Sequence record: KJ190158
Length of the DNA stretch: 64,000 nt
Direction: 5' to 3' (one strand)
Source: Escherichia phage FFH2
Shown here: positions 29,038 through 32,244 of the stretch, one piece after another
Layout: every line of letters begins with the position of its first letter
Position numbering within the stretch: the stretch's first letter is position 1
Made by a program: the position numbers and the translations under genes
Notes under the pieces: model-generated
Seen by the model: the letters and a program-made list of their open reading frames with translations, nothing else
Databases searched by the model: none
Told to the model about the DNA's origin: nothing

Positions 29038-29156
29038 AGCACCGAGCCCACACAGGTTCCTCATACTAAAGCATGGCCTGAAGAGGCAAACGTGCATAAT
29101 TCCTGCGCATTTGGACGTATAATCCTGTTCACACTCTCATTTCCAGAGGAGATTTT

Positions 29157-29372
29157 ATGAAGATAGAAATATTTGGTGGAGCTGACAACACTCGTGGCCT
29201 GATTTACCTTGAATTTGATGAATCATACCTGCCAGAGGTGTTAAATATAGACTCTGTTGCTGAGGCTTTGGGAGTAAACCCTAAAGAACTCCACTCTTGT
29301 GCTGAGATCGATGGTTGGGAAGAGACCATGAACATTGATTTCAGTGAAGTAGAGGATGAACCGCTGGACTGA
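29157..29372 (+). CDS. hypothetical acidic protein, last plus-strand gene
   Basis: MKIEIFGG...EVEDEPLD with an AGAGGAGA SD. Confidence 0.55.
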   Translation: MKIEIFGGADNTRGLIYLEFDESYLPEVLNIDSVAEALGVNPKELHSCAEIDGWEETMNIDFSEVEDEPLD

Positions 29373-29499
29373 CACACAATTAGCTGCCCGGCTAAAGTGC
29401 TGGAAGCACCTATAACACATCTTTCAACTAAATTTCCTACCACCACAATCACTTACCTCCCACACATGACTGTTTGCTTGTTTAGTGAGCAGTCATGCC

Positions 29500-29527
29500 T
29501 TGACATTCTTGCCTATCCTGATAAAAT
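29500..29527 (+). promoter_or_regulatory. sigma70-like promoter firing into the ORF-free region
   Basis: TTGACA-16 nt-TAAAAT, just after a CATGACTG...CAGTCATG hairpin (29465-29497). There is no ORF downstream for about 2.3 kb. Confidence 0.5.
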
Positions 29528-30842
29528 TAAGTTCTTCTCTTTTCTTTTACCGAGTAATTCGGGTTTTCTGTTCTCTTCGGTTTGAAGGGGTATAGAGATA
29601 CACCTGAGTGAACAGGGTGAACAACCGAACATTTGGCTATGGCATTAGCATGGCGAAGCGGACGGGTGACGAAAGAGGGGCCGGAGGACACCAGTCACTG
29701 CCATATGATATATGGGTGATAACCTGAAGAGTCTGAATAAGTGTTTAAGTACCAGTCAGAGGAAAAGGTGAATGGTAGCCGAAGGGGGAGGGGGGTTTCT
29801 TGTATCTTTAATTTGTATATTATGTATACACTTGTAAACCAATCTCATCTGAATTTGTTTACCACACAAAGTGGATAGGGACAAATATTACCTATTAAAC
29901 TTGAATTATTTATAGAAATACCACAACACCACTTAAGTCTTTGATTTTACACACAAATCCTACAGATATTCACCCTCCATATTTAACATACCTGTAACAT
30001 ATTCCATACCCTACCTGACCGATCAATTCACCCAACTACATCCCCATATTTTCCCTGTCTGTACTACCCCTGCCCCGCCGGGAGTCCCGTCATATCTGGC
30101 TTTCCAGCAAATATCACACCCACAAATATCATTGCCTGAAGAGGGTTTCATCCCATAATACATGCCTTACCTGAAGAGCGCTTCATACACCACGTAAATT
30201 TTTTAATTGACCCCCTCCCCGCCGCCGGAGAGGTTGGCTTTTCCCACACAGACCTGAAGAGTCAGCCAGAAATATCTGAACAGGTCCAGCTATGCCACGA
30301 TTTTGTGCTTGTCCTACAGGAGTGCCTCCCTGTCAGGAGCCGGTAGCGACTGGAGTGCTGCCAGGCGGACGAAATGGGAATCATTCTCATTCTTATAACA
30401 ATTCTCAAATATCGAGGCAGTGAGGCAAATTAATAGGTGAGGCCGTTCACACAATGGCACAACATTTGCAACCTATCTTGTGGGAGTGAATGAGAATACC
30501 TATCATTGTGAGAATAGTTATCATTACGGGCAATTTAACATAATACCCATTATGCGCACCACTGGCGATCCATACAGGGATTGATAACATGGGTTACTGT
30601 TTACACACATAACAATTATATTTCTTACTATTTGTGTGGGATATAGTTAGCAGCCGATAGATTAGATATTGACCTGTAGACTTCCAACCGTCCAGACGTC
30701 TAAACGCCCACACAACAAGGGTTATACATACACAACTGAATGTAAACAGGGCCGCAAAAATGCTACCATACAAGCTTGTAAATTTTTCATGCAGCACTTG
30801 ACAAAGAGGAGGAAAACTTGTCTGACACTTTAGACACAATAG

Positions 30843-31168
30843 TGACATAATATGACATAATGGTGACACTGAACATAATTGACATGCCTGACTGTTTACA
30901 TAGCTAACTATTCATACAGAAATGATAAGCCATGCCATTCGTTTGCATGATAATAATTAACTTGTTTACAATAGATGACATAATATAAAAGCAGGGCAAC
31001 TATTAGAAGATCTATAGTTGCCTTGCTTGTTATGTCATGATTAACTAAATACAAGGCAACTATGATCTGATTAATAGTTTGCAGACAAACTATCACGGGG
31101 GTGATGGTTACTGCTTTTATATTATGTCGCGACTCCGTCGCGCCATGCCATTCGTTTGCATAGTTGCC
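30843..31168. repeat. cluster of three short repeat families (TGACATAAT, GGCAACTAT half-sites, 20-mer GCCATGCCATTCGTTTGCAT)
   Basis: TGACATAAT at 30843, 30853 and 30976, plus inverted near-copies at 31029 and 31121. GGCAACTAT/ATAGTTGCC at 30995, 31014, 31055, 31074, 31086 and 31160. The 20-mer at 30929-30948 and 31142-31161. Confidence 0.8.
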
Positions 31169-31778
31169 TTATTGTTACAGATAAAATAATTGTATTGTTA
31201 ATTATTTCTTATCTTTCTCTTAGTCATCTAATGATTCCAGTCAGTATAGTAATGTACAGTAAACATTAGACGACTAAAGATTTCTCTGTTTATTATAACT
31301 TACCGTGACAATTTCAGGCTGTTTACGAAAAATGTTGACACCTGGGCCGATTTATGTTATGCAGTTTACACGAATAATTATTTTATGCAGGTATTGACTA
31401 TTCCGTTATTCTATGGTTGGAATAAATACTTAGCAGACTATAGAATGGTGAGCGTACGTAAATTCTGAGATCTGGCGGCTATAGTTATACTCGATTTTTC
31501 ACGTAGAACACGCTTTTGTTAGTGTGTAAGTGTATGACTTATAAAGATTTTTAGTTGTTGACAAGATATTGAAGATGTGCATCAGGTTAAATTTTGTGCA
31601 ATAGCGGCATTACGTGCAATTTTGAGAGAGAAAACGGGTAAAAATGGCCTTGCTATCACACAATGAAAAATTATGCAATAGTTATTTTACATGTATGTTT
31701 GTACAGTGTGTGGGATTGATGGCTAGTCAATTATTCCACTTGCCAGGCTGGGCCGTTTGTGGTAGGAGAAATACAGAC

Positions 31779-31806
31779 AAAAAGAAAGGGGCCTTTTAAA
31801 GCCCCT
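31779..31806 (-). terminator. rho-independent terminator ending the minus-strand small-gene block
   Basis: Minus strand: GGGGC-tttaaaag-GCCCC followed by TTTCTTTTT. Confidence 0.75.
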
Positions 31807-31824: not shown

Positions 31825-32244
31825 TTATAATGATTCGTATATTTCATAGATTCGATTTGCCAGGTCGTTACGGTAGCGGAATTTTTCCTCACGTTTGATC
31901 ATCAGATCTTTAAAGCCATATTCTTTAAGCACTTCATTAACTTTATGGCGGCATACCTTCATATTATCCTGTGCGTCACCAATAAACCTGTTGCTATGGT
32001 GCATGGCTTTAATTTCTTCTTCCAGGACCAGAGCAACTATGCGGACCGGATCAAGCTGATAGGCGGTAACATCCATGCGGCATTGTAAACGACTTTTTAC
32101 GTCTGCCACCGGATATACTGCAACCTCTTCCCCGTCAACATTGACAATAATTAGTTTACCATCGATTTCGAATCCTTTCGCCGCCGGACCGTGACAAAAA
32201 GCGTTATCAAAGCTATATGCCGGATTATTAGATTTAATGTTCAT
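31825..32244 (-). CDS. hypothetical protein
   Basis: 139-aa ORF with an AAGAGGTAAAA SD and its own promoter upstream. Confidence 0.6.
   Translation of the reverse strand: MNIKSNNPAYSFDNAFCHGPAAKGFEIDGKLIIVNVDGEEVAVYPVADVKSRLQCRMDVTAYQLDPVRIVALVLEEEIKAMHHSNRFIGDAQDNMKVCRHKVNEVLKEYGFKDLMIKREEKFRYRNDLANRIYEIYESL

Follow-up and report, generated by a model that had tools for sequence, protein, structure and literature searches.

A short conserved non-coding unit behind a strong predicted promoter in rV5-like coliphages: a candidate structured RNA

The DNA analyzed here is a stretch of 64,000 nucleotides from Escherichia phage FFH2 (record KJ190158), referred to below as the window. It belongs to Vequintavirus, the genus of rV5-like E. 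coli myophages, and its positions 29300-31700 match 120 phage records at 90-99% identity. Two convergent gene blocks are separated there by a 2.45-kb gene-free gap, limited by the stop of the last plus-strand gene at 29372 and by the first minus-strand gene (31825-32244); this stretch lacks annotation in most GenBank relatives. An earlier note on the sequence had proposed that a promoter in this gap could drive a structured RNA of about 700 nt, purine-rich in its first half and pyrimidine-rich in its second. We found that the gap contains a conserved strong promoter followed by a much shorter unit (29531-29798, plus strand), which is sharply bounded, non-coding, very strongly constrained and predicted to be structured in a strand-asymmetric manner, and that the same architecture is present in a second, sister clade. 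We give about even weight to the interpretation that this purine-rich half is a discrete non-coding RNA gene whose product is a stable structured RNA acting in trans.

To delimit the unit, diversity was analyzed in 18 genomes aligned across 29100-31800. Near-invariance opens just past the -10 element, at the predicted transcription start, and ends directly after the G5AG6 tract, at 29798. Only 17 of the 268 sites in this interval are variable (6.3%; diversity, pi, of 0.0125), and their distribution over the three codon phases (6/3/8) is devoid of three-base periodicity. The adjacent coding sequence (CDS) for a protein of 71 residues (29157-29372) harbors 46 variable sites out of 216 (21%; pi 0.043), distributed 7/5/26. 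Over 29530-29800, identity to the window reaches at least 95% in about 117 GenBank genomes, with values of 97.8-99.6% among the matches listed; the kilobase around the unit is mostly about 90-95% identical among relatives. Since conservation starts after the -10 element and stops after the G-tract, the constrained unit is about 265-270 nt in length and not about 700 nt.

The purine richness reported for the plus strand over about 29580-29800 was confirmed: purines account for 65.2% of the residues (G 34.8%, C 14.9%), a proportion reached by 8 of the 6378 sliding windows of the 64 kb. It does not extend up to the promoter, the first 45 nt (29535-29579) being pyrimidine-rich (24% purine). The statement that the region contains no open reading frame (ORF) also held, as nothing credible was detected and all ORFs within 29397-29884 are at most 62 codons long. 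Short ORFs do exist at 29397-29585 (plus strand), 29527-29691 (minus strand), and 29741-29878 (plus strand), and two GenBank records, Mangalyan and MiataMamis, annotate small ORFs there. The view expressed in such records, that 29500-29800 encodes one or more small proteins, has in our judgment hardly any chance of being correct. Neither an excess of variation at third positions, nor indels in multiples of three, nor a conserved ORF was found in 29531-29798, and diversity is lower than in a genuine CDS. Clade-to-clade indels in the well-aligned part are of 1 nt each, the length of the G-runs is polymorphic within the genus (G5AG6, G6AG6, and G5AG5), and no ORF is common to the window genus and the sister clade, which together exclude coding. 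In addition, one of the ORFs extends into the hypervariable spacer located downstream. Small ORFs such as the one starting at an ATG codon and spanning 29772-29837 were rejected because the G-run length polymorphism would shift their frame. A riboswitch or another cis-regulatory leader does not fit the locus either: no plus-strand gene follows the unit, the next annotated gene being convergent (31825-32244), as is the HNH endonuclease gene that comes next in the sister clade.

The promoter TTGACA-16-TAAAAT was confirmed, with 11 matches out of 12. It additionally contains an extended -10 element, TG at 29519-29520 (TTGACA-16-TGaTAAAAT), which the earlier note had not mentioned, and its predicted transcription start is located at about 29531-29535. 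In one type of relative (L003/L021), the spacer is substituted at several positions and is 2 nt longer; both hexamers are intact. At the equivalent place, the sister clade has a different but equally good promoter, TTGCAA-17-TGcTATAAT. The hexamers of this sigma-70-type promoter, spaced by 16-18 nt, are therefore conserved as elements and not as a block. The promoter is strong and conserved and is predicted to fire into a non-coding stretch. That it is well placed and keeps its hexamers, the spacer being free to change, suggests that transcription matters.

The diverged copy defining the sister clade was obtained by a sensitive search of loci fetched for other purposes. It is present in three contigs of IMG/VR that come from a single sample (L004/L124, L121, and L123), is about 77% identical to the window sequence, and is detectable by similarity in the 5' part only. 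Its surroundings match those in the window: the gene homologous to that of the 71-residue protein is followed by the promoter and by an RNA of about 255-285 nt. The latter displays a 5' polypyrimidine tract, the block CUGAGUGAACAG-N-GUGAACA-N-CCGAA, the sequence GUUUAAGUACCAG, and a G5-6-UA-G5 end. Thus, the sister clade has kept the promoter, the helix closed by the polypyrimidine and G-tracts, two hairpins with compensatory changes, and the terminal G-tract. The pattern CTGAGTGAACAGNGTGAACANCCGAA retrieved from IMG/VR the five phage contigs only; an exact 18-mer scan of metagenomes returned mostly unrelated GC-rich soil contigs and about five real copies. In the sister clade, a convergent gene encoding an HNH endonuclease of 256 residues (PF13392, E 1.6e-18) is located between the 3' end of the RNA and the C-rich block found further downstream. 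The two halves of the region initially described are consequently separable modules. This gene, of the HNH_3 homing type, occupies positions 8716-9486 of L004 (IMG/VR UViG_3300045988_159287) and lies about 70 nt beyond the G-tract. Its insertion would fit homing beside a sequence of high conservation.

A single transcript of about 700 nt (29534-30240), folded by pairing of GGGGAGGGGG with CCCCCTCCCC, had been considered conceivable in view of a 10-nt complement. The complement is exact and its second segment is indeed at 30211-30220; GGGGAGGGGG is located at 29785-29794, the quoted interval (29786-29797) being off by 1-3 nt. Perfect complements of at least 10 nt were however obtained in 48 of 300 composition-preserving shuffles of both segments (16%), indicating that the match does not exceed chance. 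The C-tract partner is not conserved, as most relatives read CCCCCTGCCCC and many harbor an insertion just upstream. The minimum free energy (MFE) structure of the 766-nt stretch pairs both halves extensively, but this fold is no more stable than those of shuffled sequences (z = 0.00). No canonical terminator hairpin is present at 29800, the first strong one downstream being a palindrome at 30977-31128, and read-through is therefore possible. Conservation nonetheless halts abruptly at 29798, the next 100 nt or so are hypervariable, and the HNH gene parts the RNA from the C-rich block in the sister clade. The C-rich half (29951-30300) shows ordinary diversity (35% variable sites, pi 0.075). The comparative data thus largely refute the long-range pairing, and we consider the 700-nt transcript very improbable. 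In structure models, the G-tract more plausibly pairs with the 5' polypyrimidine tract of the RNA itself.

The proposal of a structured RNA belonging to no known family was supported for the unit of about 265 nt and not for the 700-nt span. Folding of the plus strand over 29535-29803 led to an MFE of -82.2 kcal/mol and a z-score of -2.17 (1 of 200 shuffles), versus a z-score of -0.53 for the antisense strand. A consensus was computed by RNAalifold from 19 distinct sequences of both clades (alignment A1). It comprises 48 pairs, ten of which change on both sides and stay paired, compared to zero to two if the partners are slid by one to three columns. The alifold energy gave a z-score of -1.97 in a column-shuffle test (reached by 9 of 300 shuffles). 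The helix predicted to close the structure, P1, has an ensemble pairing probability of 0.94-0.99 at most positions in the window genus and of 0.74-1.0 in the sister clade; an equivalent helix between polypyrimidine and G-tracts was predicted for each of the three RNAs of the sister clade and also forms part of the RNAalifold consensus. Hairpin H1 is replaced in the sister clade by CCAGAA-UACGC-UUCUGG, in which one base has been added to each arm, providing an extra A-U pair, and a G.U pair has become A-U. In hairpin P2, 4 of the 12 pairs are altered on both sides from one clade to the other without loss of pairing, and 99.6% of the P2 cells in alignment A1 are paired. Within the genus, variants of the hairpin at 29694-29720 affect the loop (29708 and 29709) or convert a U-A pair into a U.G wobble (29711), and the sister clade has a hairpin, ACUGC(G)AUGU-AAU-AUAUGCAGU, at the equivalent position. 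In one sister-clade RNA (L123), the hairpin carrying CCTGAAGAG has been cleanly lost.

Comparison of the whole window with the 4227 covariance models of Rfam 15, which include 6S, CsrB/C, tmRNA, RNase P, hammerheads, riboswitches, GOLLD, and ROOL, revealed no match at gathering thresholds. At E values of up to 10, the best scores for 29480-29860 were 7-13 bits, for thresholds of 45-50, and the sister-clade copy behaved likewise. No match to the unit was detected outside Vequintavirus by blastn at E values of up to 5, nor any similarity to the RNA in 5,426 E. coli genomes, and a scan of bacterial genome contigs produced chance matches only. An nhmmer profile of the family detected no copy in the stretches fetched from Phapecoctavirus, Mydovirus, Seunavirus, and Septuagintavirus. 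Synteny of the gene for a DsbA-like regulator was followed in other Vequintavirinae genera; gene order is different there and no equivalent gap was found. Our literature search found no transcriptome of an rV5-like phage and no description of an RNA at 29531-29798. Two specific identities were considered and dropped. A hammerhead, suggested by eye from CUGAAGA...GAAA, would have a helix II opening with a G.G mismatch, and no hammerhead model of Rfam scored. A sponge for CsrA was abandoned as the 5-6 GGA motifs are close to the expectation from composition. The unit is a candidate for a new RNA family, restricted to the lineage formed by Vequintavirus and a single sister clade; its general kind, the structured non-coding RNAs encoded by phages, is known. 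Like GOLLD and ROOL, which are large or mid-size phage-borne RNAs, it is phage-encoded, strongly conserved, predicted to be structured, and non-coding, with no known function; unlike them, it is smaller, is not located beside tRNA genes, and matches no Rfam model.

These data suggest the following scheme. The host sigma-70 RNA polymerase would start transcription at the very strong extended -10 promoter, as judged from its sequence and conservation. The transcript of about 265 nt would fold into a structure closed by P1, formed by the 5' polypyrimidine tract and the 3' G5AG6 tract according to thermodynamic prediction with partial comparative support. P1 would enclose H1, the long pyrimidine/purine hairpin P2, the invariant GUGAACA-GUGAACA block, and further hairpins. 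The transcript would end at the G-tract or just past it, where UUUCUU follows in the window genus, since this is where conservation stops. During infection, the RNA would probably act in trans, as a protein-bound scaffold or as a decoy. Action in trans as a stable RNA is favored because nearly every nucleotide, including the unpaired ones, is under purifying selection.

Several observations weigh against this scheme. Transcription, both transcript ends, the stability of the RNA, and closure by P1 are features that we infer, and the analysis pinpointed no partner or target. The near-total invariance could result from overlapping constraints at the DNA and RNA levels. The z-scores are modest, at about -2, and that of one sister-clade RNA is -0.56. 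The two clades represent a single evolutionary split for the purpose of counting compensatory changes, the consensus structure was derived from the alignment on which it was tested, and MAFFT misaligns hairpin H1. Two helices of the single-sequence MFE structure (columns 17-35/74-93 and 159-166/266-273) are disrupted in the sister clade. P1 contains many G.U pairs, and the G-tract pairs equally well or better with 10 of 205 other 18-mers taken from the RNA. Folding that takes G-quadruplexes (G4) into account prefers a two-tier G4 to P1 in both clades (-98.9 versus -85.6 kcal/mol in the window genus; -98.3 versus -94.7 kcal/mol in the sister clade). Finally, the G-tract of the sister clade is followed by only UU, without a U-run, so that termination is not accounted for there.

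At the 3' end of the unit, the tract of the window comprises G5 (29784-29788), A (29789), G6 (29790-29795), and TTT (29796-29798), and the sister clade has G5-6 UA G5. Considered as a Rho-independent terminator, the module of the window genus would consist of the 3' strand of P1 followed by UUUCUU; the pairing partner is 235 nt upstream and the helix is G.U-rich. A consensus scan detected no local terminator at 29780-29810. Downstream of the promoter, the G5AG6TTT sequence (29784-29798) is of the type found in CSB II (the second conserved sequence block) of human mitochondrial DNA, GGGGGAGGGGGGGTTTG (PMC4176368), where a G4 or a hybrid G4 stops transcription and generates a replication primer (PMC4176368, PMC3488243). 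As in mitochondria, a promoter-driven non-coding transcript has a 3' region of the form GAAG(C)-G5-A-G6/7-UUU, and a G4 is predicted for the phage sequence too. The two systems differ in that homology is limited to a 17-nt motif, that the mitochondrial polymerase is a single-subunit enzyme of the phage type as opposed to the multisubunit RNA polymerase of the phage host, and that the phage tract can pair with the 5' end of its own RNA. The resemblance of CGAAGGGGGAGGGGGGUUU to CSB II is a lead and not a test; a transcription stop, an R-loop, and priming are hypothetical in the phage.

A direct terminal repeat of 459 bp at 30364-30822 is indicated by five independent record starts, by phage CM1, which has a tandem second copy beginning at 30364, and by the related phage KPP-1, for which a direct terminal repeat of 514 bp was established by coverage and PhageTerm (PMC9862379). 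The record starts are those of YN3 and bov11CS3 at 30364, of Pr121LW and EcoIv14a_Aya at the reverse complement of 30822, and of ECP2303 at the equivalent of 30823. We infer from these data that 30364-30822 is a direct terminal repeat and that the genome has fixed physical ends, which would correct the common description of rV5-like genomes as circularly permuted. The left edge of the repeat (30363-30421) is among the few stretches conserved with the sister clade. Given a terminal repeat at this position, no other transcription unit would lie between the RNA gene and the right-end repeat, at which the RNA gene would point.

The main alternative, which we regard as doubtful but worth serious consideration, is that the promoter and its transcript act in cis at the genome end. 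Transcription toward the terminal repeat would stall or end at G5AG6 by formation of a G4 or an R-loop, and the transcript would then prime DNA synthesis in the AT-rich stretch or mark the concatemer junction for terminase. In agreement with this possibility, CGAAGGGGGAGGGGGGUUU closely matches the CSB II RNA GAAGCGGGGGAGGGGGGGUUUGG (PMC4176368, PMC3488243), a tract with two G-runs is kept in both clades even though the surrounding sequence differs, and in both of them G4-aware folding of the tract favors the two-tier G4. A stretch rich in AT (GC about 27%) directly follows, no gene is located downstream, and the unit points at the putative 459-bp repeat, 565 nt away. Motifs CCTGAAGAG and CAAATATC occur on the same strand between the RNA and the repeat, with one copy inside the RNA.

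Two known systems provide models for action in cis. In the primer transcripts of replication origins, such as ColE1 RNA II and those of T4 ori(uvsY) and ori(34), a promoter is followed by a structured or G-rich non-coding RNA and by an AT-rich region. As in the phage unit, no gene is present downstream, and the fold of the RNA matters in ColE1. The phage unit differs by its location between convergent gene blocks near a putative genome end and by the lack of sequence similarity; neither an antisense regulator nor an RNase H site nor activity as an origin is known for it. At the right end of T7, the phiOR promoter, which has no downstream gene, faces a short direct terminal repeat flanked by the SRL and SRR repeat arrays. 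Similarly, short repeats are present on both sides of the putative repeat in the window, CCTGAAGAG and CAAATATC on one side and TGACAY on the other. The phage promoter is of the host sigma-70 type, and it is followed by a highly conserved unit of 265 nt, predicted to be structured, of which T7 is not known to have a counterpart; the terminal repeat of the window is putative, its position being taken from GenBank record starts. In T7, it is the pausing of the RNA polymerase at the concatemer junction that sets maturation and packaging in motion (PMC3276506).

Other observations argue against action in cis. Selection on nearly every base and compensatory changes in hairpins exceed the needs of a simple R-loop primer, although ColE1 RNA II is also structured. 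The sequence immediately past the G-tract is the least conserved of the region, and the convergent HNH gene of the sister clade is only about 70 nt past it. DnaA boxes (TTWTNCACA) are not enriched, with one box in the region and seven in the 64 kb for 8.4 expected, and a DnaA-dependent origin, which would have a cluster of such boxes beside an AT-rich unwinding element, was rejected. The GC skew peaks at the region instead of reaching a minimum, and the authors of the rV5 genome paper ascribed its change at the gap to gene orientation (PMC3606486). The terminal repeat is itself putative. A bolder version of this model, to which we attach a low probability, is that the unit is the bacterial-virus counterpart of the mitochondrial device formed by the light-strand promoter (LSP) and CSB II. 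A conserved G4 or hybrid G4 would stop the transcript of the host polymerase, and the RNA would be retained on the DNA in an R-loop. Located at the right end of a genome with terminal repeats, this R-loop would prime replication or license cutting of the concatemer junction by terminase. Formation of P1 would compete with the G4 and act as a switch between free and DNA-bound RNA.

It may also be considered that conservation reflects a DNA-level element, a platform for a replication, packaging, or regulatory protein of the phage, and that the transcript is incidental. Such an element would account for the extreme invariance, to which predicted loops are no exception, for the recurrence of GUGAACA (as a tandem pair), CCTGAAGAG, and CAAATATC on a single strand in the two clades, and for the location of the unit beside the putative genome end. 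It would not account for a conserved, well-placed strong promoter with a spacer free to change, nor for the strand specificity of the structure signal, and paired compensatory changes and the paired insertion in H1 are not expected of sites in duplex DNA. We consider this explanation improbable.

Returning to the candidate RNA gene, the stretch was drawn in the rV5 genome paper as a grey box labelled "non-coding", without explanation (PMC3606486), and since 2013 this 2.5-kb box has been left blank in the map of these phages. If the RNA exists, it ranks among the most strongly conserved sequences of rV5-like genomes, it is absent from almost all annotations or mis-annotated as tiny ORFs, and it belongs to no known RNA family. 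It would then offer a handle on the start of replication or packaging, or on host manipulation, in these phages, and on closing helices between G- and polypyrimidine tracts or G4 in bacterial transcripts. The rV5-like phages count among the coliphages isolated most frequently, and biocontrol and therapy cocktails make use of them.

Table 1. Features of the gene-free gap of the window (coordinates are window positions).
Feature	Position	Strand	Remark
Conserved non-coding RNA unit, about 265-270 nt	29531-29798	+	Low diversity, strand-specific fold, no Rfam match
Sigma-70-type promoter (predicted)	29500-29527	+	-35 TTGACA 29500-29505, 16-nt spacer, -10 TAAAAT 29522-29527
Closing helix P1 (predicted), 5' strand UUCUUCUCUUUUC	29532-29544	+	MFE pairing with 29781-29793
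Hairpin H1 (predicted), CCGAG-UAA-UUCGG	29550-29562	+	Fold
Hairpin P2 (predicted), polypyrimidine 5' arm, polypurine 3' arm, loop GGUUU	29565-29598	+	MFE helices 35-48/54-68
Block CUGAGUGAACAG-G-GUGAACA-A-CCGAA, GUGAACA twice	29604-29629	+	Nearly invariant between the two clades (alignment A1)
Hairpin (predicted) GUCAC(UG)CCAUAU-GAU-AUAUGGGUGAU	29694-29720	+	Fold
CCTGAAGAG motif copy inside the RNA	29723-29731	+	One of five same-strand copies in 29077-30261
3' end module GAA-G5-A-G6, then UUUCUU	29781-29801	+	3' strand of P1 or, alternatively, two-tier G4 (both predicted)
Hypervariable AT-rich spacer, GC about 27%	29799-29895		Outside the conserved unit
Second small conserved island, 55 nt	29896-29950		3 of 55 sites variable, pi 0.013; conservation equal to that of the RNA
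C-rich, G-poor block of repeated short motifs	29951-30363	+	Separate from the RNA; motif counts
Putative direct terminal repeat, 459 bp	30364-30822		GenBank record starts

Downstream of the RNA unit, the spacer varies at 73 of 97 sites (75%; pi 0.143) and is replaced by a different sequence in three genomes (L007, L013, and L020). The conserved island that follows carries TATAAATA on the minus strand (29914-29907), and one GenBank record (isim) begins exactly at its first nucleotide, 29896. A T4-type late promoter was rejected for TATAAATA, which is not enriched in the window.

The pyrimidine-rich, G-poor character of 29930-30240 was verified (C 32.8%, G 12.9%), and the windows of the 64 kb lowest in G start at 29801-29901. 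This C-rich half (29930-30300) is not part of the RNA and is a separate block of repeated motifs abutting the putative terminal repeat. It is non-coding, as variable sites lack codon periodicity (42/39/33) and indels are of 1 nt. Motif CCTGAAGAG is found at 29077, 29723, 30135, 30170, and 30253, and nine times in the 64 kb for 0.67 expected; the copies of CAAATATC at 30108, 30123, and 30406 are the only three in the 64 kb. C-tracts are present at 30066-30080 (ACCCCTGCCCCGCCG) and 30210-30224 (ACCCCCTCCCCGCCG), and CCACACA is also repeated. The motifs recur in the sister clade, to which the sub-block 30053-30151 is 76-79% identical. Just before the boundary of the putative repeat, 30296-30349 is an indel hot-spot: about 40% of the genomes lack the segment and others have insertions of 13-33 nt.

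The block could be a Rho-utilization zone ending untranslated plus-strand read-through, from the RNA gene and from the upstream operon, before the genome end. This proposal, which we deem unlikely, concerns the pyrimidine-rich half only and is compatible with the RNA gene. The composition of the 311 nt of 29930-30240, the most G-poor of the window, and their untranslated status on the transcribed strand are those expected of such a zone, but composition by itself is weak evidence. Also in its favor, the authors of the rV5 paper had anticipated bidirectional terminators between genes 163 and 164 but detected none, intrinsic ones included (PMC3606486). Against it, a rut site would have no use for the conserved repeated motifs of the block, and a strong putative bidirectional hairpin terminator is located further on, at 30977-31128.

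The latter spans about 150 bp as a nested palindrome and has an outer inverted repeat that is perfect over 18 nt (GACATAATATAAAAGCAG / CTGCTTTTATATTATGTC). Its RNA fold has z-scores of -8.65 and -9.92 on the plus and minus strands, respectively, and each strand ends with CUGCUUUUAUAUUAU. It has the appearance of the bidirectional terminator anticipated, but not detected, by the rV5 authors between these two genes. Direct repeats of 20 nt, perfectly matched, lie on either side of it (GCCATGCCATTCGTTTGCAT at 30929 and 31142). The palindrome is present in every member of the genus that was checked except FV3 and is absent from the sister clade; it may therefore be a mobile or facultative element.

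Two further repeats were observed near the putative genome ends. Inside the terminal repeat, 30491-30525 contains a tandem repeat of 17-18 nt (TGAGAATACCTATCATT / TGAGAATAGTTATCATT). Immediately outside it, 30823-30900 harbors an array of at least six copies of TGACAY/AGACAC, which overlap -10-like CATAAT sequences. From one genome to another, this array is hypervariable, in its length as well as in its sequence (pi 0.15-0.31), and we take it to resemble the arrays of short repeats found next to the terminal repeat of T7.

At the other border of the gap, the minus-strand gene 31825-32244 encodes a protein of 139 residues (phrog_12277, unknown function) that is about 90% identical in Phapecoctavirus, a member of a different subfamily. 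In phAPEC8 (L006, 5059-5478), the gene is likewise followed by a terminator and by a gene-free gap of 1.5 kb; beyond this gene and its terminator, the gap has no DNA similarity to that of the window. About 19 GenBank records labelled 'Campylobacter phage' (MG0656xx, several UNVERIFIED, host C. jejuni) are 93-98% identical to the window genus across the region and are probably mislabelled or contaminant Vequintavirus genomes.

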